From positions 113,738 to 127,781 of the forward strand of contig CAYTEO010000004.1 of NCBI GenBank assembly GCA_964436825.1: a stretch of DNA of 14,044 nt, given 5' to 3'. This DNA is from an uncultured Fibrobacteraceae bacterium (GTDB taxonomy: Bacteria > Krumholzibacteriota > Krumholzibacteriia > LZORAL124-64-63). Each line of letters begins with the position of its first letter. Positions within the stretch are counted from its first letter, which is position 1. Made by a program: the position numbers and the translations under genes. The notes below the pieces were generated by a model. It was not told the origin of the DNA. It worked only from the letters and a program-made list of their open reading frames with translations, and did not search any database. Of this stretch, positions 1,468-14,044 are shown in pieces.

Positions 1468-2214
1468 TCAACCGGCAATCAGTTCCAGCCCCAGCGAGGC
1501 GACGGCGTAGCCGAAGATCCCCGGCAGGGCCATCCCGCTGGGCAGGGGGCGCCGGGGGCGGCCGCGTTGGAAGGCCGGTTCCTCGCCGGGATCGTCCAGG
1601 GGAACGGCCGGCGCCTCCTCCGACCAGACACACGGCAGCGGCCGGACCAGTCCCTCCCGGCGCAGCAGGCGGCGGACCCGCCGGGCCAGGGGGCAGCGCC
1701 GCGACGCCCACAGGTCGCCGCTGCGCACGGCCGAGACGTCCGTGTGTCCGGCCGCTCCCATGCTGCTGACCACCGGCCACTCCCGGCGCAGGCACCAGGC
1801 CAGCAGGGCGACCTTGGGACCCAGCCCGTCGATGGCGTCGACGAGCAGGTCGGGTCGCTCGTCCAGCAGCTCGGCCGCCGTGCCGGTGTGGAAGAAGGCG
1901 GACACCGGCCTGACCGCCGTGTCGGGGCAGGTGCGGGAGAGGAACCGGGCCAGGACCTCGGTCTTGGGCCGGCCCACGTCGCCGGGGCCGGCGCAGGGGT
2001 GGCGGTTCAGGCTCGACGGCGTGATCACGTCGGGATCGATCAGGGTCAGGGCGCCGATCCCGCTGCGGGCCAGGGCCACCGCCGCGTGGGAGCCCACACC
2101 GCCCGCGCCGACGACGACGGCCCGGGCCGCGCGGATGCGGGCGAACCGTTCGGGGCCGTAGAGACCGACGGTGCGGGCGAATCGCTCAGGGAAGTCGGAA
2201 GAGGCAACGGGCAT
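1468..2214 (-). CDS. tcdA: tRNA threonylcarbamoyladenosine dehydratase TcdA (ThiF/MoeB E1-like)
   Basis: Rossmann segment VVVGAGGVGSHAAVALARSGIGALTLIDPDVITPSSLNRH, with an order of motifs collinear with E. coli TcdA/CsdL. I trimmed the track ORF (1468..2379) to the ATG at 2214-2212, which is preceded by GAGGAG with a 10-nt spacer. The trimmed start overlaps the upstream TatD stop by 29 nt. Confidence 0.85.
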   Translation of the reverse strand: MPVASSDFPERFARTVGLYGPERFARIRAARAVVVGAGGVGSHAAVALARSGIGALTLIDPDVITPSSLNRHPCAGPGDVGRPKTEVLARFLSRTCPDTAVRPVSAFFHTGTAAELLDERPDLLVDAIDGLGPKVALLAWCLRREWPVVSSMGAAGHTDVSAVRSGDLWASRRCPLARRVRRLLRREGLVRPLPCVWSEEAPAVPLDDPGEEPAFQRGRPRRPLPSGMALPGIFGYAVASLGLELIAG

Positions 2215-2956
2215 TGGCGGTCGTCTCCTCGGCGATGGTCTCCAGGGGAACGCCGCGCAGGTCGGCCAGCGCGGCGGCCACCTCCCGCACGTGCCGCGGC
2301 TCGGTCTCCCGCGGCGCAACGCCCTCCAGGCCGATGGAGGGGGCGTCGGTCTCCAGCACGATCCTGTCCAGGGGCGCAACCTGGGCGCTGCGCCGCGGCC
2401 GGCGGGCCCGCGGCCTGGTGATCGCCCCCCCGAACCCCAGGTGCAGCCCCAGGTCGAGGAAGCGTCGCATCAGCTCCGGACCGCGGCTGAAGGCGTGGAC
2501 GACACCCTGCACCGGCGCCAGCGGCGCCAGCAGTTCCAGCAGCTCCGCGAAGGCTCCGCGAACGTGCAGGACGACCGGCAGGTCCAGCTCCCGCGCCACG
2601 GCCAGCTGGACCTCCAGGACCGGCGTCTGGACGGCCAGCGGTGGATGGTCCACCTTCCCGTCCAGCCCGATCTCGCCCACGGCCACCGCGTTGCTCTCGC
2701 GCAGGGCACGGCGCAACCGGTCGGCCAGTGCCTGCGGGTCCGGGGCCTGGTCGGCCACCCACGGGTGGAGCCCCAGGCAGGGGTGGACATCCGGGTGCGC
2801 TGTCGCCAGGTCGCGGATGGCGCCCCAGGATCCCAGGTCGTACGCCGGCACGACGCAGCCGCTCACCTCCGCGGCGGTGGCCCGTGCCAGCACCCCCGGC
2901 ACGTCGTCGCCCAGGGGGGGCATGTCCAGGTGGGCGTGACTGTCGATCAGTCGCAC
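2186..2956 (-). CDS. TatD-family metal-dependent hydrolase/DNase
   Basis: N-terminal VRLIDSHAHLDM (TatD/YcfH signature), then GLHPW, AVGEIGLD, VVLHVRGA, HAFSG-like and LETDAP motifs. The track ORF (2186..3379) has a 141-codon out-of-context N-terminal extension running through the MBL gene, so I trimmed it to the GTG at 2956. This start overlaps the upstream MBL gene stop by 10 nt, which suggests translational coupling. Confidence 0.85.
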   Translation of the reverse strand: MRLIDSHAHLDMPPLGDDVPGVLARATAAEVSGCVVPAYDLGSWGAIRDLATAHPDVHPCLGLHPWVADQAPDPQALADRLRRALRESNAVAVGEIGLDGKVDHPPLAVQTPVLEVQLAVARELDLPVVLHVRGAFAELLELLAPLAPVQGVVHAFSRGPELMRRFLDLGLHLGFGGAITRPRARRPRRSAQVAPLDRIVLETDAPSIGLEGVAPRETEPRHVREVAAALADLRGVPLETIAEETTANARCLFRLP

Positions 2957-3750
2957 ATCGCCCTCCCGGAGACCGTGGATTCCTCCAGGATGACGGTGGG
3001 AGTGTCCTGTCTGGCCACCAGCCAGCGCACTCCGGCCGGGTCGCCGGCCGCCTCCCGGACGTCGGCAAGGGCCAGTTCCGGTTCGTTGTTCTGCTCGCTG
3101 AGATGTCCCAGGACCACGATCCGCAGCCGGGACGAGTGCCGCCTGGCCGTCGCCACCAGCTCGCCGCACTGGCGGTTGCTCAGATGGCCGCGCGGGCCGG
3201 CGATGCGGTGTTTCAGGAAGGCGGGGTAGGGACCGTCTCGCAGCAGGACAGGATCGTGGTTGGCCTCGACGTACAGGACGTCCAGGCCGGACAGCGACGC
3301 GGTGGGCAGGCCGTCCACCGTCCCCAGGTCGGTCAGCAACAGCAGGCTCAGGTCCGGCCCGTCCAGGCGGAAGGCGCACGGTTCCGCAGCGTCATGGGAG
3401 GTGGGGATCGCGGTGATGCGCATCCCGGCCAGCGCGAACGGTCGCAACGGGGCCACCAGCCGGGCGGCGGGCAGTTGCGCCAGTCCGCTGTGGCGAGCCG
3501 TCCCGGCGGTCATCATGACCGGCACTCCGAGGCTCGCGGACAGCCGGGCGGCACCGCGCACGTGATCGGTGTGTTCGTGGGTCAGCAGGAGGGCTTCGAT
3601 GCCCCGGGGATCGATGCGGGCCTCCGCCAGCCTGCGCAGGGTCTCGCGACGGGAGAGGCCGCAGTCGACCAGCACGCCCCGGCCGCCGCGCAGCACGCAG
3701 GTGGCGTTGCCCCTGCTGCCACTGGCCAGGTTCACGATGCGCGTGGGCAC
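2947..3750 (-). CDS. MBL-fold metallo-hydrolase, YycJ/WalJ-like
   Basis: N-terminus IVNLASGSRGNATCV...LVDCGLS, HxHxDH motif (LTHEHTDHVRG), then a downstream His and Asp pattern, all collinear with Bacillus YycJ. GTG start at 3750 is preceded by GGAGGAG with a 7-nt spacer. Stop is TGA at 2949-2947. Confidence 0.8.
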   Translation of the reverse strand: MPTRIVNLASGSRGNATCVLRGGRGVLVDCGLSRRETLRRLAEARIDPRGIEALLLTHEHTDHVRGAARLSASLGVPVMMTAGTARHSGLAQLPAARLVAPLRPFALAGMRITAIPTSHDAAEPCAFRLDGPDLSLLLLTDLGTVDGLPTASLSGLDVLYVEANHDPVLLRDGPYPAFLKHRIAGPRGHLSNRQCGELVATARRHSSRLRIVVLGHLSEQNNEPELALADVREAAGDPAGVRWLVARQDTPTVILEESTVSGRAMCD

Positions 3751-5354: not shown

Positions 5355-6731
5355 ATGCCCCCAGCCCTGACGGAATTCTGTCGCTGCCATCCCGGGAGCG
5401 TCGTCCGGATCCTGGACGCCCTGCAGGAGATGGTCCTGGTCGCCGGGCCCGACCTGCGCCTCTCGGCCATCAACGAGGCTGCCGCCCACTTCCTGGGAGT
5501 CCGCCGCGAGGAGGTGCTGGGACAGCCCCTCTGCGACCTGTTCGCCGAGGACGCCTGTCCCGTGGACTGCCTGGGCGAGACCCTCCGGACGGGGCGTCCC
5601 ATCGTCGACTACCAGACCGACGTCGCCCTGCCGGACGGCCGCCGCTTCGACATCCTCGTGCGGACCGTGCCCCTCGAACCGGCGGAACCGGACGTCGGTG
5701 CGGGCGCCGCCCTCATCCTGCGCGACGTCACCGAGGTGACGAGCCTGCGCAAGGAGATCAGCGGCCGGACCCTATTTGCCGGGATCGTCGGCAAGAGTCG
5801 CCGGATGCAGGAGCTGTACACCCTGATCGAGGACGTGGCACCGACCGAGGCGACGGTCCTGATCCGGGGCGAAACCGGGACGGGGAAGGAGCTGGTGGCC
5901 CGGGCCATCCACCGCCACAGCCGGCGCAGCGAGGGGCCGTTCGTCACGGTCAACTGCTCGGCCCTGTCGGAGACCCTGCTGGAGAGCGAGCTGTTCGGGC
6001 ACGTCCGCGGCGCTTTCACCGGGGCGGTCGCCGACCGGCGGGGCCGTTTCGAGGAGGCCCGCGGAGGTACCCTCTTCCTGGACGAGATCGGGGACGTCAG
6101 TCCCGTCGTCCAGGTCAAGCTGCTGCGGGTCCTGCAGGAGCGGGTCATCGAGCGGGTGGGGGACAACACGCCCCGGCCGGTGGACGTGCGGATCATCACG
6201 GCCACGAACCGCGACCTGGAGGAGCTGGTGGCCATCGGCCGGATCCGGCGCGACTTCTACTACCGGATCAAGGTGGTCGTCCTGGAGCTGCCGCCGCTGC
6301 GGGAACGGCGCGAGGACATCCCCCTGCTGCTGGAACACCTCCTGCGGCGCCACGGGCGCACCGTGGAGGATGTGGCGCCCGAGACGCTCCGCCTGCTGAT
6401 GGACCACGACTGGCCCGGCAACATCCGGGAGCTGGAGAACGCCATCGAGCACGCCGTCGTCCTGAGCCGGGGCGGTCCCATCGAGCCGCGCCACCTGCCG
6501 CCGGAGATCGTTCGGGCCGTCCCAGTCGGGGGCGGGCGGCCGGTCGCCTCGCGCCGCGCACCCCTGGAGCGGGAGACGATCCTGGCGGCCCTGGAGCGCC
6601 AGCACTGGCACCGGGGCCGGACGGCACGGGAGCTGGGGATCGACAGGACGACCCTGTGGCGCAGGATGCGGGAATACGGTCTGCTGGACGACCGCCACCG
6701 GCGGGGAAGGGAGGGCGGCGATGGGCGGTAG
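5355..6731 (+). CDS. sigma-54-dependent transcriptional activator (PAS sensor - AAA+ sigma-54 interaction domain - Fis-type HTH), no receiver domain
   Basis: N-terminal PAS-like region (about residues 10-130). Walker A GETGTGKE, the sigma-54 contact motif GAFTGA, Walker B LFLDEIGD and the arginine finger region. C-terminal HTH ([21 protein letters not shown]). ATG at 5355 is preceded by GAGGTGA. Stop is TAG at 6729-6731. Confidence 0.9.
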
Positions 6732-7728: not shown

Positions 7729-8199
7729 TCACTCCCCGGGGGCGAGGCCGCCCGGCCTGCGGATCCGCTCGAGGCTGCGGACCAGCTCTTCCGGCTCGGG
7801 TGTCCCGATCAGCAGCGTGCGGCCGTCGGTCGTCACCAGCAGGACGCCGCGGTTGCCGGTGACGTTCCATCGCCAGTTCCCCAGCGCCCACTTGAGCCCC
7901 AGTCCGGCCCGCAGCAGCATCCCCTCGACGACGTGGACCGATGCGATCCTCGCCAGGGGCACCGATCGCCGCGGCCAGCCGAAGGTGGCCCGCAGACCGA
8001 GCTTCTCCCTGTCGACGACGATCGTCACCGTCCCGAGGGCGAGGCCCAGCAGCAGGGCCGCCGGCGGGACGATCCAGCGCCACGGTCCGCTGTCGGGGGA
8101 CCAGTTGACGGCACAGGAGACTGCACCGGCCAGGACGAACAGCAACATGATCGGCCAGCCGAGGAAGCGGCGCTCGTAGACGGGATTCACGACGGCCAC
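7729..8199 (-). CDS. YdbS-like membrane protein: two TM helices plus a bacterial PH (bPH_2/DUF304-like) domain
   Basis: Two hydrophobic helices (PIMLLFVLAGAVSCAV and ALLLGLALGTVTIVV), then an approximately 90-aa domain with a PH-like pattern (REKLGLRATFGW...IASVHVVEG...LLVTTDGRTLLIGTPEPEEL). The GTG start lies 1 nt after the SPFH gene's TGA. The start is uncertain because no good Shine-Dalgarno is present, and an internal ATG at codon 18 is an alternative. Confidence 0.55.
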   Translation of the reverse strand: MAVVNPVYERRFLGWPIMLLFVLAGAVSCAVNWSPDSGPWRWIVPPAALLLGLALGTVTIVVDREKLGLRATFGWPRRSVPLARIASVHVVEGMLLRAGLGLKWALGNWRWNVTGNRGVLLVTTDGRTLLIGTPEPEELVRSLERIRRPGGLAPGE

Positions 8200-8200
8200 C

Positions 8201-9067
8201 TCACTGGTAGAGCGTGCCGGTGTTCAGGACCGGCTGCGCCGCGTGTTCGCTGCAGAGCACGACCATCAGGTTGCTGACCATGGCCGCCTTGCGCTCGGCG
8301 TCCAGCTCGACGATGTCCTTCTCGCCCAGCTCCTGCAGGGCCAGCTCGACCATGCCGACGGCGCCCTCGACGATCTTCTGGCGCGCCGCCACCACGGCGC
8401 TGGCCTGCTGCCGCTGGAGCATGGCACCGGCGATCTCGGGGGCGTAGGCCAGGTGGCTCAGGCGCGCCTCGATGACCTCGACCCCGGCCCTGCCCAGGCG
8501 TTCCTGCAGCTCCCGTTCCAGGCGCTCGTTGATCTCGTCGGTCGTCCCGCGCAGGGTCAGCTCGTCCTCGGGACCGTCGTAGGGGTAGGCGCCGGCCAGG
8601 TGGCGGACGGCCGCCTCGCTCTGGGTCTCGACGTACTCCTCGTAGTCGTCCACCTCGAACATGGCCTGGGCCGTGTCCCGGACCCGCCAGACGACCACGG
8701 CCGCGATCTCGATGGGATTGCCGGCCAGGTCGTTGACCTTGATCTTCTCCCCGTTGAGGTTGCGGGCCCGGAGCGAGATCTTCCGCTTGGAGAGGAAGGG
8801 ATTGGCCCACTTGAAGCCGTTGGTCCGGACCGAGCCCTTGTAGTCCCCGAACAGCAGCAGCACCGCCGCCTCGTTGGGGTTGACGATGAAGAAGCCGACC
8901 ATCAGGACGATGTCGAGCGCGAAGACGACGATACTGCTGACGATCTCGGCGACCGCCTCGTGGCGGACGCCGCGGACGAAGCCGTAGACCGACAGGCCCA
9001 GGACGACGATCGTCGCCAACAGAACCGGCCAACCGGACGAGATGCTGATCTCCTTTTCCCTGTGCAT
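8201..9067 (-). CDS. SPFH/band-7 (stomatin/prohibitin-like) membrane protein
   Basis: N-terminal membrane helices are followed by an SPFH core ([33 protein letters not shown]...[21 protein letters not shown]) and a C-terminal coiled-coil-like region rich in E, R, A and Q. ATG at 9067 with GGAGG 6 nt upstream. Confidence 0.85.
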
Positions 9068-9099
9068 GACGAACCTCCGCGTTGGGGCGTTGGGGTCGC

Positions 9100-9139
9100 T
9101 GTGATGTCACGATGATATCACGCTGGTAGCATACGGTCA
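9100..9139 (-). promoter_or_regulatory. sigma-70-like promoter with extended -10 (TTGACC, 17 nt, TGaTATCAT) overlapped by tandem 11-bp direct repeats (putative Arc-type operator)
   Basis: On the minus strand the -35 TTGACC (9139-9134) and the -10 TATCAT (9116-9111) are 17 nt apart, with a TG extension. The plus strand 9101-9122 contains TGATGTCACGA and TGATATCACGC, which are 9/11 identical tandem repeats. Each has TGAT..ATCA/TCAC half-site symmetry. They span the -10 element and the predicted transcription start. Confidence 0.4.
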
Positions 9140-9171
9140 AGGCTGCAGGTGGGTTGCAGGGAAGGGAACGG

Positions 9172-9201
9172 AAAAAAAGGGCCCGGCGCGATGCCGGGCC
9201 C
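9172..9201 (-). terminator. Rho-independent terminator of pepT
   Basis: Perfect 9-bp GC stem GGGCCCGGC (9179-9187) and GCCGGGCCC (9193-9201) with a 5-nt loop. On the minus strand it is followed by a T7 run (9178-9172). It lies 28 nt after the pepT stop. Confidence 0.65.
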
Positions 9202-9229
9202 CTGTCCCTGGTCGCGGGGGATATGTCGG

Positions 9230-10513
9230 TCAGGTGCTCGCCGGGCCGGCGGTGCCTTCCCTCTCGGCCCAGACGGAGATCAACTGCAGGATCGTGCTGG
9301 TGGCCAGCTCCATGTCCTTGACGCAGACCCACTCGGTGAAGCTGTGGAAGCTCTGCTCGCCGGTGAAGAGGTTCGGCGTGGGCAGGCCGCGCGCGGTCAG
9401 GTTGGCGCCGTCGGTGCCGCCCCGGATGGAGCCCAGTTGCGGCTCGATGCCGACCCGGCGGATGGCCTCGATGGCGTATTCGACGGCCCGGGGCTCCTTC
9501 TCCAGGTCGTACTTCATGTTCCGGTAGTATTCCTTGATCTCGAACTCGAAGGTCGATCCCGGCCAGGCGGCGCAGGCCTGCTGCGCACGCTCGCGCAGCA
9601 GCTGGGCCTTGACCGGCAGCTGGTCGAGATCGAAGTCGCGGATCAGCAGGTGGACGGTCACCTTGCTCGTGTTGCCCTCGATGCTGATGGGGTGGACGTA
9701 GCCCTGCTTCTCCTCGGTCGTCTCCGGCGCCATGTCCCGGGGCAGGGAGGCGATGAACTCGGCGGCCACCTTGATGGCCGGGACCATCTTGTCCTTGGCG
9801 TAGCCGGGGTGGATGTCGCGGCCGATGAAGGTGACGATGGCGCTGTCGGCGCAGAAGGTCTCGTTCTCCACCTCGCCGCGCCGGCCGCCGTCCATCGTGT
9901 AGGCCACCTTGGCGCCGAACTTCTCGATGTCGAAGTACTTGACGCCGGCACCCACCTCCTCGTCGGGGGTGAAGGCGACCTTGATCGTCCCGTGCTTGAA
10001 ATCGGGGTTCTCGACGATGCGGGTCAGCGCCTCCATGATCTCGGCGATGCCGGCCTTGTCGTCGGCACCCAGCAGGGTCGTCCCGTCGGCGGTGATGATC
10101 GTCTCGCCGATGCACTCGGCCAGGTAGGGATTCTCCTTGGCCTTGATGACGACACCGTTGTTGGGCAGGGCGATGTCCCCTCCCTGGTAGTTCTCGTGGA
10201 AGATGGGATTGACGTCCTTGCCCGAGACCTCGGGGTAGGTGTCCATGTGCGCGATGAACCCGACGGCCGGCACGTTCGCCAGGGCGGGGTCGTTGGCCGG
10301 CAGGGTGGCGGTCACGTACCCGTACTGGTCCATGGCGGCGTCGGACAGGCCCAGCTCCTGCAACTCCTTCACCAGCAGGCGCCCCAGTTCCAGCTGACCG
10401 GGCGTGGAGGGATAGGTCGACGTGTCCTCGGCGGACTGGGTGTCCATCCTGGCGTAGGTGACGAAGCGCTCGGTCAGGGAGGGGAATCGCGAGTCGGGAT
10501 TGCGGTCCAGCAT
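9230..10513 (-). CDS. pepT: Peptidase T (tripeptide aminopeptidase, M20B)
   Basis: Collinear with E. coli PepT from the N-terminus (LTERFVTYARMDTQS...IGFIAHMDT...GADDKAGIAEIMEAL...TPDEEVG...). I trimmed the track ORF (to 10609) to the ATG at 10513-10511, which is preceded by GAGGAG with a 7-nt spacer. Confidence 0.9.
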   Translation of the reverse strand: MLDRNPDSRFPSLTERFVTYARMDTQSAEDTSTYPSTPGQLELGRLLVKELQELGLSDAAMDQYGYVTATLPANDPALANVPAVGFIAHMDTYPEVSGKDVNPIFHENYQGGDIALPNNGVVIKAKENPYLAECIGETIITADGTTLLGADDKAGIAEIMEALTRIVENPDFKHGTIKVAFTPDEEVGAGVKYFDIEKFGAKVAYTMDGGRRGEVENETFCADSAIVTFIGRDIHPGYAKDKMVPAIKVAAEFIASLPRDMAPETTEEKQGYVHPISIEGNTSKVTVHLLIRDFDLDQLPVKAQLLRERAQQACAAWPGSTFEFEIKEYYRNMKYDLEKEPRAVEYAIEAIRRVGIEPQLGSIRGGTDGANLTARGLPTPNLFTGEQSFHSFTEWVCVKDMELATSTILQLISVWAEREGTAGPAST

Positions 10514-10608
10514 ATGGTGTCTCCTCGCCTTGCGTGTGGCAGGGCGCGCCAGCGGAGCATCTGGTGGGGCTGCCCGCCGGGCAACGATCTGTGTGGGCGC
10601 TGGCGGCA

Positions 10609-10637
10609 ACGATAGTCGATCCCACTGGGGGTGGCAA
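10609..10637 (-). promoter_or_regulatory. Possible sigma-70-like pepT promoter (-35 TTGCCA, 17 nt, -10 TATCGT)
   Basis: This is a hexamer and spacing match on the minus strand. The -10 overlaps one copy of a direct repeat ATCGTTGCC, and the second copy lies 25 bp downstream. The evidence is weak and sequence-only. Confidence 0.25.
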
Positions 10638-10702
10638 GCGGGACCCCCGACGGCGGCGGGGGAGCGCGATAACGGCGCGTTCGGGGGCTGGTGGTGTCCT
10701 GT

Positions 10703-12040
10703 TCAGGAGGCGGCGTGGACCGGGGCCCGTTGCGGGGCCTGCTGCTCGCCGCCGAAGCGGATCCCGATCCCGTGCAGCAGGGCGAAGGGCGGGATCCCGC
10801 CGATCAGGACCAGGACGTTGTCCGCCGGCACGACGACCCCACCGCCGGGGGTGGCCAGGGCGACGCTGGTGGGGGTGATCTCCTGGACGGTCGATTCGGG
10901 CAGGAACGTGATCCTTCCGTCCGCGATGGCGCGCTCGATGCGCTCGGCGTTGCGCTTCTTGACGCGCAGGAAGGCCGGCTTGCGGTAGGAGAGGGTGACC
11001 CGGGTCCCGGCCTGGGCCGACAGGCCCAGGGCGGCCTCGACGGCGCTGTCCCCGCCACCGACCACCAGGACGCGCCGGTCGCGATAGGCGGCGGCGTCGA
11101 TCAGCTTGTAGGTGACGTGGGGCAGTTCCTCGCCCGGCACGTCCAGCCTGCGCGGCGTACCGCGCCGTCCCAGGGCCAGCACGACCCGCCGTCCCCGGAA
11201 CCGCTCGCCGCTCTCGGTTTCCACCGTGAAGTCGCCACGCTGCCCGGTGACGCCGGTGACCCGCAGGGGGTGGCGGATATCCAGGCCGAAGTCGCGGTGC
11301 AGTCGCCGCCAGATCTCCAGTAACTCCTCCTTGCTGTACTCCTCGCGGTCGAGGGTCCCGAAGCAGGGAATGGTCACCGGCTGGACCATGACGAGCTTGT
11401 GCCGGGGATACTGCAGGATCGTCCCGCCTGGTCCCTGCTGGTCCAGGACGATGCAGCGCAGGCCCTCGCGGGAGGCGGTCAGCGCCGCGCTCATGCCGGC
11501 CGGCCCGGCCCCGACGATCACCACGTCCCACAGGTCCGGCTCCCGCGACCGCTCCGGGTCCCGCGCGATGGCCCCGGCAACGCGCTCTCCCTGCCGGATG
11601 GCGTTGCTGATCAGGGCGAAGCCGCTCAGTTCGCCGCAGATGTAGATGCCGGGGACGCTGGTCTGCTGGTCCTCGTCGAGCAGGGGGATGTCATCGCGGG
11701 TCCGGATGTCGCCCAGACCGATCCTGATGGCACCGACCGGACACGCCTCGGCGCACTTGCCGTGGCCGATGCAACGGGCCCCGTTGATGACGACCGCCCG
11801 CCCGGAGACGATCCCCAGCACGTCCCCCTCGGGACAGGCCGCCACGCAGGTCCCGCAGCCGATGCAGGCGTTGGCGTCGACCAGGGGATACTGGCCCAGC
11901 GGCTTGTCCAGGCCGAGGGCCGCCGACTCCCGCCGGCGGAGGGCCGCCTCCCGGCGATCGCGGCGAAAGCGGATCAGGTACGGGACCAGGGTCCCGGCCC
12001 CGATCGCCAGCGCTCCCAGCCAGATCAGCAGCGATTCCAC
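10703..12040 (-). CDS. Membrane-anchored fusion of a 2x[4Fe-4S] ferredoxin domain to a thioredoxin-reductase-type FAD/NAD(P)-binding oxidoreductase (ferredoxin:NAD(P)+ reductase-like, no redox-active CxxC)
   Basis: N-terminal TM helix (LLIWLGALAIGAGTLVPYLI, then RFRRDRR). Two cluster motifs, CIGCGTCVAACP and CIGHGKCAEACP; the second has His in place of the second Cys. FAD GxGxxG motif (VVIVGAGPAGMSAA), second dinucleotide motif (VLVVGGGDSAVEAA), and no CxxC between them, which matches TrxR-like ferredoxin:NADP+ reductases of the YumC type. GTG start at 12040, 15 nt after the outer-membrane-protein stop. Confidence 0.75.
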   Translation of the reverse strand: MESLLIWLGALAIGAGTLVPYLIRFRRDRREAALRRRESAALGLDKPLGQYPLVDANACIGCGTCVAACPEGDVLGIVSGRAVVINGARCIGHGKCAEACPVGAIRIGLGDIRTRDDIPLLDEDQQTSVPGIYICGELSGFALISNAIRQGERVAGAIARDPERSREPDLWDVVIVGAGPAGMSAALTASREGLRCIVLDQQGPGGTILQYPRHKLVMVQPVTIPCFGTLDREEYSKEELLEIWRRLHRDFGLDIRHPLRVTGVTGQRGDFTVETESGERFRGRRVVLALGRRGTPRRLDVPGEELPHVTYKLIDAAAYRDRRVLVVGGGDSAVEAALGLSAQAGTRVTLSYRKPAFLRVKKRNAERIERAIADGRITFLPESTVQEITPTSVALATPGGGVVVPADNVLVLIGGIPPFALLHGIGIRFGGEQQAPQRAPVHAAS

Positions 12041-12055
12041 GGTGCACCGTCCCTG

Positions 12056-13660
12056 TCAGAAGCGATAGGCCAGTCCGGTCCGCAGGGACAACCCCTCCAT
12101 GCTGTCTCCCCGGTCGTACTCCACCTCGGTCCGGACGTCGAGGCCACCGGGCAGCGGCCGCCACCATCCCGCCCGCAGCCACCGGTCCCTTCGCGTCAGC
12201 CCCGACGTCCGGTAGGCGTAGCGGCCGGCGGCCAGTTCCAGGCGGTCGCCGCGGTCGGTGGCCAGCTCCAGGGAGAGGGACGGGTGCCAGCCCGAGACCA
12301 GCTCCCCGTCGAACCCGCTGACCGAGAGCCGCAGTCGGGTCCGTGCCCCAAGCAGACCGCGCCGGGTCCAGGAGAGGCGGTAGGAGAGGGTCCGGTCCCG
12401 TCCCCGGCGGAAGTCGCGCACGCCGCCGTCGGCGGACAGCGAGGAACGGTTTCCCCGCCAGGCGAACCCCAGCCGCGCTCCCCGGCGTCTGGAGTTGTCG
12501 AACAGGCTGTCGGCCAGGCTGCGGGTCTCCCAGGTGCGCGGCAGGTGCCGGTCGTCGTAGGCCAGGTGCCAGCGCCAGCTGGCGGTCGGGCGGTATCCCA
12601 GCCGCAGCCAGAGGTTGTTGATCCGCAGACGGTCGCGGGCAACCCCCATGCGCCAGCCCCGGTTCATGTCGATCTCCACGGTCTGGTCCAGGGACCAGCG
12701 CCGCGGCCCGCGCCAGTGGAACCCCAGCAGGGCGTACTCGCGGCTGATCTCGCCGCGGTGGTACTGGCCGATGCCGGCGCAGTCCAGGCGCCAGCGTCCC
12801 CCGCCGAGCCGTCCGGCGCCGGCCAGCAGCCCGCCCAGCTTCAGGTCGTCCGTGCGCGGTGCGGACGTGCGCCAGTCGGGCTGGAAACCGGCGAACAGGC
12901 CGATGCGCAGCGACCGGTAGAAGGGAATGCTCGTCACCGCACCGTCGAGGTAGCCCACACCGGGCACCGAGCGCGGGATGAACCGGCCCAACCGCCAGTG
13001 CCAGCGCACGTCGGGATCCTCCCGGTAGAGGGAGCAGGCGGTGACCCGGTTGACCCACTCGGTCGCAGGGGCCGTGGCCAGGTCCCGCCGGCGGGCGATC
13101 CGGCGCAGGGAGCCTCGTACCTCCAGGTCCGGGCCCCGGTCACTGTCGTGGCGCAACCGGAAGCGGACGGTCGTCCGTGTGGCGTCCAGGTCCGAGACGG
13201 TGCGATCGTCGGTGTGGTCCCAGTCCAGGGAGAGCCCTCCCCGCCAGGACGACGGCCGGCGGGAGGCCTCCCGCTCCGGCGCGGGCGCCGGCGACGGCAC
13301 CGGTCGGCGCCGCGCCGGTGGCGATGCGGCGACGGCCGTTGCGGTCGAGTCGGCTGCGTCGGCAGCGGCCTGGATGGGGACGGCCCGGTCGCCGGGCCGG
13401 ATCCTCCCGGAGGCGGACTCGACGCGGCAGGAGGCCGAATGGGTCGCCACGTGCTCCACCGTCACCACGGCCACCTGCCGCTCGCCGCGGTGGATGGCGA
13501 AGCGGTCGCCGGGCCGGATCCCCTCCCCGCGCCCACCATCGAGGTAGACGTGGTCGGCGGAGACGTACCGGACGTGCTGGACCACCGGGACAGCCGCCGC
13601 GGCCAGCGGCAGCACCAGGACCAGCAGGCCGAGACGGGACGACAGGTTCCGCCTTCTCAT
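12056..13660 (-). CDS. Predicted outer-membrane beta-barrel protein with an N-terminal small beta-domain and a Pro/Ala linker
   Basis: Signal peptide MRRRNLSSRLGLLVLVLPLAAAAVP. An approximately 70-aa domain carries a duplicated G(R)IRPGDR motif. A Pro/Ala/Ser-rich linker follows. The remaining roughly 380 aa have alternating hydrophobic and aromatic residues and abundant W, Y and R, and end in LAYRF (a C-terminal Phe, the beta-barrel assembly signature). The ATG at 13660 shares its A with the cytochrome's TGA stop (TGATG). Confidence 0.55.
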   Translation of the reverse strand: MRRRNLSSRLGLLVLVLPLAAAAVPVVQHVRYVSADHVYLDGGRGEGIRPGDRFAIHRGERQVAVVTVEHVATHSASCRVESASGRIRPGDRAVPIQAAADAADSTATAVAASPPARRRPVPSPAPAPEREASRRPSSWRGGLSLDWDHTDDRTVSDLDATRTTVRFRLRHDSDRGPDLEVRGSLRRIARRRDLATAPATEWVNRVTACSLYREDPDVRWHWRLGRFIPRSVPGVGYLDGAVTSIPFYRSLRIGLFAGFQPDWRTSAPRTDDLKLGGLLAGAGRLGGGRWRLDCAGIGQYHRGEISREYALLGFHWRGPRRWSLDQTVEIDMNRGWRMGVARDRLRINNLWLRLGYRPTASWRWHLAYDDRHLPRTWETRSLADSLFDNSRRRGARLGFAWRGNRSSLSADGGVRDFRRGRDRTLSYRLSWTRRGLLGARTRLRLSVSGFDGELVSGWHPSLSLELATDRGDRLELAAGRYAYRTSGLTRRDRWLRAGWWRPLPGGLDVRTEVEYDRGDSMEGLSLRTGLAYRF

Positions 13661-14044
13661 CAGTCACCTCCGTCGCCGCTCGGGTGGCACCGGTAGCACT
13701 CCGAACTCCGGTAGACGTACCCCCCCACTTCCCGGTGATCGCGGTCGGTGTCGGTCTGGTTGTGCTCGTGGCAGAGGATGCACTCGAAGACCTGGTAGTC
13801 GGTGGGGCTGACGTGGCAGTCGGTGCAGGTGTCCCACTCGCCCCGGTGCGATCCGGAGTAGATGGGGAAGAGGCCGTCGTGGTCCCAGTCGGCCGGCCGC
13901 CAGGCCCTGGTGGCGTGGCAGGCGGCGCAGTCGGTCGGGAATCCCGACGCCGTGTGGTCCGGGTCGATCGTCGCGTCGTAGTCGGCCTGGTGGCACCCGA
14001 AGCAGTCGCTCGGCGTGCCGGCGTAGCCCTGGGCGTGGCAGGCG
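13660..14044 (-). CDS. Multiheme c-type cytochrome, C-terminal 128 aa (5'-partial; continues beyond the window edge)
   Basis: This reading frame is not in the supplied ORF track because it has no in-window start. Translating the minus strand from 14043 gives A-CHAQGYAGTPSDCFGCHQADYDATIDPDHTASGFPTDCAACHATRAWRPADWDHDGLFPIYSGSHRGEWDTCTDCHVSPTDYQVFECILCHEHNQTDTDRDHREVGGYVYRSSECYRCHPSGDGGD*. It contains five complete CXXCH motifs (CFGCH, CAACH, CTDCH, CILCH, CYRCH) and a sixth that is truncated at the window edge. The stop is TGA at 13662-13660. Confidence 0.8.
   Translation of the reverse strand, partial: ACHAQGYAGTPSDCFGCHQADYDATIDPDHTASGFPTDCAACHATRAWRPADWDHDGLFPIYSGSHRGEWDTCTDCHVSPTDYQVFECILCHEHNQTDTDRDHREVGGYVYRSSECYRCHPSGDGGD

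Follow-up and report, generated by a model that had tools for sequence, protein, structure and literature searches.

A candidate PCC3-type electron cassette with a membrane-anchored ferredoxin-flavoprotein in a Krumholzibacteriia genome and its relatives

Three linked genes in the window

The stretch of DNA described here (the window; 14,044 nucleotides [nt] of contig CAYTEO010000004.1 from the uncultured Fibrobacteraceae assembly GCA_964436825.1, classified in GTDB as Krumholzibacteriia) ends with three closely packed genes coding for a multiheme cytochrome c, a beta-barrel outer membrane protein (OMP), and a membrane-anchored ferredoxin-flavoprotein, which may together form part of an electron transfer system spanning the cell envelope. 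All three are on the minus strand, as are the coordinates given for them and their parts. The G+C content of the window is ∼70%, so that long spurious open reading frames (ORFs) abound, and several on the opposite strand (e.g., 8187 to 11531, 1114 aa; 11399 to 13696, 765 aa) are rejected as high-GC artifacts; despite this noise, the three genes are real.

The cytochrome gene is represented by its 3′ end, 127 codons and a stop (13660 to 14044), truncated at the window edge; its frame (13663 to 14043) translates without a stop into 127 aa and is open to the edge. It contains five complete CXXCH motifs (CFGCH, CAACH, CTDCH, CILCH, and CYRCH) and the tail of a sixth, partial at the edge. The gene ends with ...GGT GAC TGA, and the ATG of the barrel gene overlaps this stop by 1 nt (GACTGATGAGA), forming a TGATG junction (13658 to 13662) that is equally tight in relatives and consistent with translational coupling of the two genes. 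The OMP gene (12056 to 13660) has a 534-codon ORF that begins MRRRNLSSRLGLLVLVLPLAAAA and codes for a signal peptide, a FlgT-like domain, a Pro/Ala-rich linker, a 22-strand barrel, and a terminal Phe (...GLAYRF). Its TGA stop is followed by a 15-nt spacer (CAGGGACGGTGCACC; 12041 to 12055) and then by the GTG start of the 445-aa ferredoxin-flavoprotein (10703 to 12040), in which a transmembrane (TM) helix, a 2×[4Fe-4S] domain, and an FAD/NAD(P)H domain of the thioredoxin reductase (TrxR)/YpdA type are recognized, with Pfam and NCBIfam matches that include Fer4 and Pyr_redox. This gene content and spacing, from the cytochrome 3′ end through the 1-nt overlap and the 15-nt gap, agree with what an earlier note had read from the sequence. 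No promoter-like site lies between the three genes; one is present in the gap that separates the flavoprotein stop from the following gene, coding for a PepT-like M20 peptidase, and a strong terminator-like hairpin (9177 to 9203, minus strand) is 3′ of the peptidase gene, so the flavoprotein gene is probably the last of the operon. No Rfam RNA family is found in the window.

The visible cytochrome fragment has weak matches to Cytochrome_C7 (Pfam) and to the DmsE family (NCBIfam), scoring 16.7 bits against TIGR03508 (DmsE; cutoff, 192.2). It is 61 to 68% identical to the C termini of a 16-heme and a 22-heme cytochrome at two related loci (L001 and L090, respectively). By this similarity, its counterpart in the cassette described below is the variable cytochrome encoded next to the barrel, at the position called "extracellular MHC" (multiheme cytochrome) in PCC3 clusters. 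A sequence search with the fragment yielded short partial proteins only.

The OMP matches no Pfam or NCBIfam family, and has 26 homologues at 24 to 39% identity as well as one identical copy. An AlphaFold2 model built on a 23-sequence alignment (mean pLDDT, 85.6) confidently predicts an N-terminal periplasmic beta-barrel domain that is FlgT-like (residues 28 to 95; 13376 to 13579), a disordered Pro/Ala-rich linker (residues 99 to 131; 13268 to 13366) with pLDDT below 50 and a length that varies in the alignment, and a plug-less 22-strand transmembrane beta-barrel (residues 138 to 534; 12059 to 13249). Neither plug nor usher-type domains are present in the model, which bears out the beta-barrel that had been proposed earlier for this protein. 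The N-terminal domain contains an S75-A76-S77-C78 motif (13427 to 13438) that is invariant in 23/23 sequences; it was considered as an ApbE flavinylation site and discounted, as it differs from [S/T]GA[S/T]. In some homologues, a second Cys is found close to where this domain begins. A profile search of 1.84 billion representative sequences yields 1020 clusters at E ≤ 1e-30, and by profile similarity the barrel is a large unannotated family of about 1000 clusters at 50% identity. Four members (P0160, P0161, P0163, and P0252) are 650 to 820 aa long and match the profile in two stretches, suggesting an extra N-terminal domain, and another (P0010) has two copies of the FlgT-like domain.

The flavoprotein begins MESLLIW, and the GTG start is confirmed because this N terminus is common to its homologues. 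A predicted TM helix (approximately residues 5 to 24; 11969 to 12028) is followed by a basic stretch (RFRRDRRE), and a W7...Y21-x3-F25-R-R pattern is conserved there among 121 homologues; no twin-arginine signal precedes the helix. From the positive-inside rule, the cofactor domains are predicted to be cytoplasmic. The first of these (residues 52 to 110; 11711 to 11887; Fer4_10, Fer4_7, and Fer4_21 matches, with Fer4_10, Fer4_7, and Fer4_9 above the Pfam cutoffs) is a dicluster 2×[4Fe-4S] ferredoxin domain with one variant site, and Pfam places the Fer4 dicluster at residues 53 to 106 and Pyr_redox_3/Pyr_redox_2 at 172 to 429. The first motif, C59xxC62xxC65xxxC69P, is canonical, whereas in the second, C90xxH93xxC96xxxC100P (residues 90 to 100; 11741 to 11773), His93 replaces the usual second Cys. 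All seven Cys residues and His93 are conserved in at least 97% of the 121 sequences, and the same His is found in distant copies, which implies that the second cluster is a Cys3His-ligated [4Fe-4S]. The two clusters of the earlier annotation are retained, but the second is not of the Cys4 type. A [4Fe-4S] cluster with a His ligand typically marks the place where electrons enter or leave at the protein surface, as does the distal cluster of [NiFe]-hydrogenases.

The remainder of the protein is a two-dinucleotide-binding flavoprotein domain (residues 171 to 431; 10748 to 11530; Pyr_redox_3, 5e-42) with a GAGPAG FAD motif and a GGGDSAVEAA...SYRK NAD(P)H motif. The closest solved structures are of YpdA/Bdr (7a76 and 7a7b; E values of 1e-22 to 1e-20), and in the alignment to these the catalytic Cys of the YpdA GGGPCG motif is Ala in GAGPAG. 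Scores are 165.7 bits for TIGR04018 (YpdA/Bdr) against a cutoff of 339.9, and 90.5 bits for TIGR01292 (thioredoxin reductase) against a cutoff of 343. A TrxR-type CxxC is absent, and across the 121 sequences there is no conserved Cys outside the ferredoxin domain. A disulfide reductase role is rejected on the YpdA Cys-to-Ala change and the missing CxxC, and because redox-active Cys residues are lacking, the flavin would have to pass its electrons to the Fe-S clusters. The flavoprotein is 50 to 69% identical across phyla, compared to 26 to 42% for the barrel. Its database annotations are limited to "NAD(P)-binding domain-containing protein" and "thioredoxin reductase."

A conserved five-gene neighborhood

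Genomic neighborhoods of three OMP homologues are organized in the same way, with genes coding for a ∼236- to 287-aa protein lacking a Pfam match, a ∼560- to 600-aa multiheme cytochrome, a 289- to 424-aa multiheme cytochrome, the barrel, and a Fer4 plus Pyr_redox protein. A scan with one genome per species identified 94 relatives, of which 80 were kept. Their hosts are Krumholzibacteriia, Calditrichia, Ignavibacteria, Zixibacteria, KSB1, Fibrobacteres, Gemmatimonadota, Acidobacteriota (Thermoanaerobaculia, Holophagae, and Vicinamibacteria), and one Polyangiaceae metagenome-assembled genome, such that the cassette recurs across at least eight phylum-level groups, with OMP identities of 26 to 42%. 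In 75 of the 80 loci, the barrel gene is immediately preceded by a CXXCH-rich ORF.

The small Pfam-less protein is a predicted inner membrane protein (IMP), and its presence is closely tied to that of the flavoprotein. Among the 54 loci with at least 7 kb of upstream and at least 2 kb of downstream sequence, in which co-occurrence was counted, both are present in 46, neither is present in 8, and there are no discordant cases (Fisher P of ∼1e-9, for loci that are phylogenetically non-independent). The same cassette is recovered from other starting points: sampling from the flavoprotein, with three homologues chosen by similarity alone, returns it in 3/3, and in a metagenome scan seeded with the IMP the flavoprotein, barrel, and cytochromes are present at all 14 loci with sufficient flanking sequence. 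The IMP and flavoprotein genes are immediate neighbors, in either order, in several lineages. Co-occurrence of the three genes of the window, which the earlier note had left to be checked, is thus kept across phyla of the Fibrobacteres-Chlorobi-Bacteroidetes (FCB) group and Acidobacteriota, whether sampled from the barrel, the flavoprotein, or the IMP.

In relatives, the IMP is ∼290 aa long, and inspection of its sequence suggests five hydrophobic helices. Invariant among 56 distinct sequences, and also present at L090, are W96-x3-H100-x13-H114, S136-G137-x-x-G140, and W259-x3-H263-x13-H277. The ∼300-aa IMPs of the PCC3 and PCC4 clusters have five TM segments, of which TM4 carries SGxxG and TM3 and TM5 each carry W-x3-H-x13-H, and were likened to the ferric reductase domain of NOX/FRE enzymes (He et al. 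2017, PMC5566968); at the level of sequence motifs, the signature in the relatives is exactly that of the PCC3 IMP.

The first of the two cytochromes contains 20 CXXCH motifs in most loci and the second contains 10 to 55, with heme numbers counted as CXXCH motifs in stop-to-stop ORFs. Orthologues of 416 aa with 16 hemes and 570 aa with 20 hemes have about 26 to 28 aa per heme and are built of c7/c3-type repeats. Both cytochromes at L001, L003, L005, and L090 have signals of the signal peptidase I type; the mature 20-heme protein starts with a QLSPGxLSxxH sequence conserved in the relatives examined, and the best-conserved part of the second cytochrome is its C-terminal module, encoded beside the barrel gene. 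The earlier note had considered that the cytochrome might turn out to be a diheme or cytoplasmic membrane protein, but in relatives the barrel-adjacent cytochrome is secreted, with a signal peptide and 10 to 55 hemes, and is neither diheme nor integral to the inner membrane. At loci without the flavoprotein and IMP, a single fused cytochrome of 35 to 50 hemes (960 to 1408 aa) precedes the barrel gene (L032, 6944 to 9958; L060, 7100 to 9982; L077, 5579 to 9805), and the Zixibacteria version, with 36 hemes, equals the 20 plus 16 of split versions. These look like natural fusions of the two cytochromes, which probably act as one wire.

Locus L090 (70% G+C) carries all five cassette genes, with cytochromes of 20 and 22 hemes, and has the downstream genes of the window in common with it, those for an M20 peptidase and a Band_7 protein (74 and 70% identity, respectively) and for a 152-aa protein, with a sigma-54 PAS activator gene nearby; by these similarities it is the best proxy for the sequence beyond position 14044. 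In the window, the PepT-like M20 peptidase gene (9230 to 10609, minus strand) is downstream of the flavoprotein gene and probably starts at an internal Met (427 aa) rather than at the TTG at 10609. It is followed by genes coding for an SPFH/Band_7 protein (8201 to 9067, minus strand) and for a small membrane protein that matches bPH_5 weakly (7729 to 8199, minus strand). A PAS-domain sigma-54 enhancer-binding protein (Sigma54_activat and HTH_8; 5355 to 6731, plus strand) is encoded ∼4 kb from the operon and in the same relative place at L090, and genes for a TatD-family hydrolase and a ThiF-family protein (2186 to 3379 and 1468 to 2379, minus strand) are at the far end of the window.

Other flanking genes are variable. 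At L005 (132 to 10472) there is a tandem arrangement, with second barrel (580 aa) and flavoprotein (495 aa) genes upstream of the IMP-to-flavoprotein set. L087 has ZnuA/ABC-3 metal ABC transporter genes on both sides of the cassette together with a DtxR-type Fe-dependent repressor gene (1 to 2057 and 10235 to 14649), and L090 has an OPT-family transporter gene upstream; such metal transport neighbors may hint at metal acquisition, but they are not conserved elsewhere. At L006, L007, L009, L011, L012, L087, and L089, which are Krumholzibacteriia-like, the gene after that for the flavoprotein codes for an enoyl-CoA hydratase (ECH_1). At L001 (13074 to 16023), genes for thioredoxin-like, DUF4266, DUF3570, and ApbE proteins directly follow the flavoprotein gene; a link to flavinylation through these was considered, but they occur in one genome only (three loci with the same sequence) and are judged incidental.

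A proposed electron path and its alternatives

We propose, at about even odds (a probability of roughly 0.5), that the three genes of the window are the distal part of a five-gene, PCC3-type trans-envelope electron cassette connecting cytoplasmic NAD(P)H with the cell exterior, in which the genes run in the order di-heme b IMP, 20-heme cytochrome, variable 10- to 55-heme cytochrome, 22-strand barrel, and ferredoxin-flavoprotein. The N-terminal helix of the flavoprotein would anchor it to the inner membrane on the cytoplasmic side, where it would oxidize NAD(P)H at its FAD, with electrons passing through the two [4Fe-4S] clusters and likely leaving from the Cys3His cluster. They would then enter the cytoplasmic-side heme b of the five-TM IMP and cross to its periplasmic-side heme, continue through the 20-heme periplasmic wire to the second cytochrome, whose conserved C-terminal module could sit at or in the plug-less barrel, and end at an acceptor outside the cell, for example a partner cell, humics, or Fe(III) or Mn(IV) minerals. 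The IMP would be oriented N-in and C-out, with its heme His residues on TM3 and TM5, and the flavoprotein would add an out-to-in helix. The interpretation of the earlier note is supported, in that each of the refuting conditions it named was checked and none went against it. Its NAD(P)H-linked input module needs an amendment: as the flavoprotein is predicted to be cytoplasmic, it could serve as an input only through the di-heme b membrane protein expected to be encoded beyond the window end.

The IMP and flavoprotein can be viewed as a possible split analogue of NOX/FRE enzymes, in which six TM helices are joined to a dehydrogenase, with a different dehydrogenase fold. A fuller formulation, that this split NOX-like NAD(P)H:multiheme cytochrome oxidoreductase together with at least 36 c hemes and the barrel gives diderm bacteria a quinone-independent path to the exterior that is widespread in the FCB group and Acidobacteriota, is put forward tentatively, as somewhat less than an even bet. 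The data show gene anatomy, predicted folds, cofactor motifs, and conserved synteny and co-occurrence; cofactor loading, protein contacts, direction of flow, acceptor, and quinone independence are features that we infer. Outward electron flow should be thermodynamically favored, and since export of electrons from NAD(P)H dissipates charge, the cassette more likely serves as an electron sink or in extracellular reduction, likely including reductive metal acquisition, than in proton-motive respiration.

Several observations weigh against this proposal. The genes for the IMP and the 20-heme cytochrome are outside the window and are seen in relatives only, and the functions of the cassette and of PCC3 are both predicted ones, for the cassette from sequence, predicted folds, and gene neighborhoods. 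The IMP scores below the gathering thresholds of the Pfam families DUF4405 (16.8 to 26.4 bits, threshold 26.7), Ferric_reduct (15.2 bits, threshold 28), and Ni_hydr_CYTB, all of which are di-heme cytochrome b families; in favor of the proposal, heme b binding has been demonstrated for DUF4405 proteins (PMC11334425). A fusion of the IMP and flavoprotein (a Rosetta stone) was sought and not found, the genes being adjacent only. The 8/54 loci with a cytochrome and barrel core but no IMP or flavoprotein nearby indicate that the core can work with another input. Surface exposure of the cytochromes is an assumption that a lipobox Cys would have favored, and none is present in either cytochrome at L001, L003, L005, or L090. 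The likeness to PCC3 is one of gene order, heme counts, and IMP motif, with protein homology to proteobacterial PCC3 lying outside that basis. In Sideroxydans ES-1, the PCC3 genes were down-regulated on Fe(II). The authors who described PCC3 proposed that its IMP is quinone active (PMC5566968).

An alternative that keeps the same conduit follows from this last suggestion. The IMP would oxidize quinols or reduce quinones, and the flavoprotein would be peripheral, for instance an auxiliary NAD(P)H:quinone or NAD(P)H:IMP enzyme by which the system is poised; or electrons would flow inward to the quinone pool, from Fe(II) or Mn(II) or from a cathode. Multiheme conduits such as Mtr and Mto are generally reversible, which counts in its favor, as do the weak similarity of the IMP to Ni_hydr_CYTB, a quinone-reactive cytochrome b family, the cytochrome and barrel cores that lack the flavoprotein, and the inward model put forward with the quinone-active IMP (He et al. 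2017, PMC5566968). However, loci without the flavoprotein are also without the IMP, a pattern not foreseen for an IMP that needs only quinones as its partner, and the flavoprotein's own TM anchor and surface-type Cys3His cluster suggest that it docks directly to a protein in the membrane. An inward flow reaching NAD(P)+ would have both the redox potential difference and the membrane potential against it. We regard this alternative as unlikely.

The flavoprotein and IMP could instead deliver reductant to the periplasm, as Fre-MsrQ and DsbD do, so that heme wires or periplasmic targets stay reduced, mature, and are maintained, or so that soluble oxidants or metals are detoxified, rather than provide a respiratory or sink route to insoluble acceptors outside the cell. 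MsrQ, PepSY-type, and DUF4405-type di-heme b proteins are known or proposed to feed periplasmic partners (PMC11334425), thioredoxin-like genes are near the clusters at L001, L003, and L090, and metal ABC transporters and a DtxR-like repressor flank the cassette at L087. These neighboring thioredoxin, ApbE, and metal transport genes are not conserved, however, and 36 to more than 70 hemes with a dedicated plug-less 22-strand barrel far exceed the needs of periplasmic maintenance, making such a role quite unlikely.

It is improbable that the barrel is a diffusion channel, or a channel for secretion, assembly, or anchoring of the large cytochrome, with the cytochromes acting as periplasmic electron stores, given that the cytochrome gene adjoins the barrel gene in 75/80 loci and is probably coupled to it in translation, that the cytochrome module encoded beside the barrel gene is the best conserved, and that plug and usher-type domains are absent. 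A fortuitous association of the flavoprotein gene with its cytochrome and barrel neighbors, for which only the general frequency of unrelated neighbors can be cited, is refuted by synteny conserved in at least eight phylum-level groups and recovered from three independent sampling directions.

To our knowledge, the characterized Gram-negative routes of extracellular electron transfer (CymA, ImcH, CbcL, and others) draw on the quinol pool. The NAD(P)H-to-exterior cassette, if correctly interpreted, would have a different entry point, with cytoplasmic NAD(P)H feeding a di-heme b protein and then a heme wire, and would function as an electron sink and not in a proton-motive manner. The flavoprotein would then be the long-sought partner of the PCC3-type IMP, and the cassette offers a hypothesis for the function of that IMP, which has been open since 2017. 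Soils, sediments, groundwater, and sludge are rich in the carriers (Krumholzibacteriia, Calditrichia, Ignavibacteria, Zixibacteria, KSB1, Thermoanaerobaculia, Vicinamibacteria, and Holophagae), which are mostly uncultured, and the cassette, although unannotated, could contribute significantly to the redox cycling of Fe, Mn, and humics. The three unannotated families, barrel, IMP, and flavoprotein, are possible marker genes.

Comparison with known systems

Although the earlier note likened the gene order to that of the Mtr, Pio, Mto, and Oma-Omb systems, the nearest described system by IMP signature, gene order, and content is PCC3 (PMC5566968), which it did not name. On gene order, heme counts, and IMP signature, the core of the cassette is classed as a PCC3-type cluster. 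PCC3 clusters consist of a porin, an "extracellular" cytochrome (median of 34 hemes), a "periplasmic" cytochrome (median of 21), and an IMP, with 22 to 39 aa per heme, and are found in Alpha-, Beta-, and Gammaproteobacteria, as in Sideroxydans lithotrophicus, where the genes run Slit_0867-0870, with cytochromes of 17 and 21 hemes, and Slit_1446-1449 (He et al. 2017, PMC5566968). The four components are in the same relative order (IMP, ∼21-heme cytochrome, variable-heme cytochrome, and porin), the porin gene adjoins a cytochrome gene, and the 26 to 28 aa per heme of the cassette is within the PCC3 range. The hosts differ, however, being FCB-group phyla and Acidobacteriota and not Proteobacteria, and the cassette porin has 22 strands and a FlgT-like N-terminal domain, whereas PCC3 porins are predicted to have up to 42 transmembrane segments. 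A further difference is that the TM-anchored ferredoxin-flavoprotein strictly accompanies the cassette IMP, whereas the PCC3 account mentions none. In the literature covered, which is incomplete, no flavoprotein of this type is described in any porin-cytochrome cluster, nor are PCC3-type clusters described in FCB phyla or Acidobacteriota, and a dedicated flavoprotein partner of a PCC3-type core appears to be undescribed so far.

The MtrCAB, MtoAB, and PioAB systems likewise have a multiheme cytochrome gene tightly linked to a barrel gene, forming a presumed barrel-insulated heme wire, and the likeness to MtrA-MtrB and PioA-PioB drawn in the earlier note stands for this pairing. It does not extend to homology of the barrels, as the cassette barrel has no match to the MtrB_PioB family (PF11854) and has 22 strands, compared to the 26 expected. 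The cassette cytochromes are also c7/c3-type repeats with 16 to 55 hemes and not DmsE/MtrA decahemes, and the proposed input is not by way of CymA and quinol. The Geobacter Pcc (OmbB-OmaB-OmcB) and Ext clusters share an architecture of porin, periplasmic cytochrome, and outer cytochrome, and Geobacter-type Pcc/Ext clusters have been reported in Ignavibacteria. The Geobacter cytochromes have 8 and 12 hemes, though, compared to 20 and 10 to 55 in the cassette, and the outer cytochrome is a lipoprotein, whereas no lipoprotein cytochrome is present in the cassette relatives examined; in addition, the cassette includes an IMP and a flavoprotein. The recently proposed EET1-4 clusters from peat, with 8 to 13 hemes, are different from the cassette.

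The inner membrane part resembles NOX/FRE, MsrQ, PepSY, and DUF4405 proteins, with which it shares H-x13-H pairs on two helices for two putative b hemes and a predicted NAD(P)H-flavin relay across the membrane. Unlike NOX/FRE, its membrane component has five predicted TM helices, and a second protein, itself anchored by one TM helix, supplies the dehydrogenase; moreover, this dehydrogenase is TrxR/YpdA-like with two [4Fe-4S] clusters and not FNR-like. The flavoprotein itself has the two-Rossmann FAD/NAD(P)H fold of YpdA/Bdr and of TrxR-type ferredoxin-NADP+ reductases, but is extended by a TM helix at its N terminus and by a dicluster ferredoxin domain, and it lacks the catalytic Cys. A fused module of two [4Fe-4S] clusters with FAD and NADPH sites also recalls subunits of the GltD/NfnB type, in function only.

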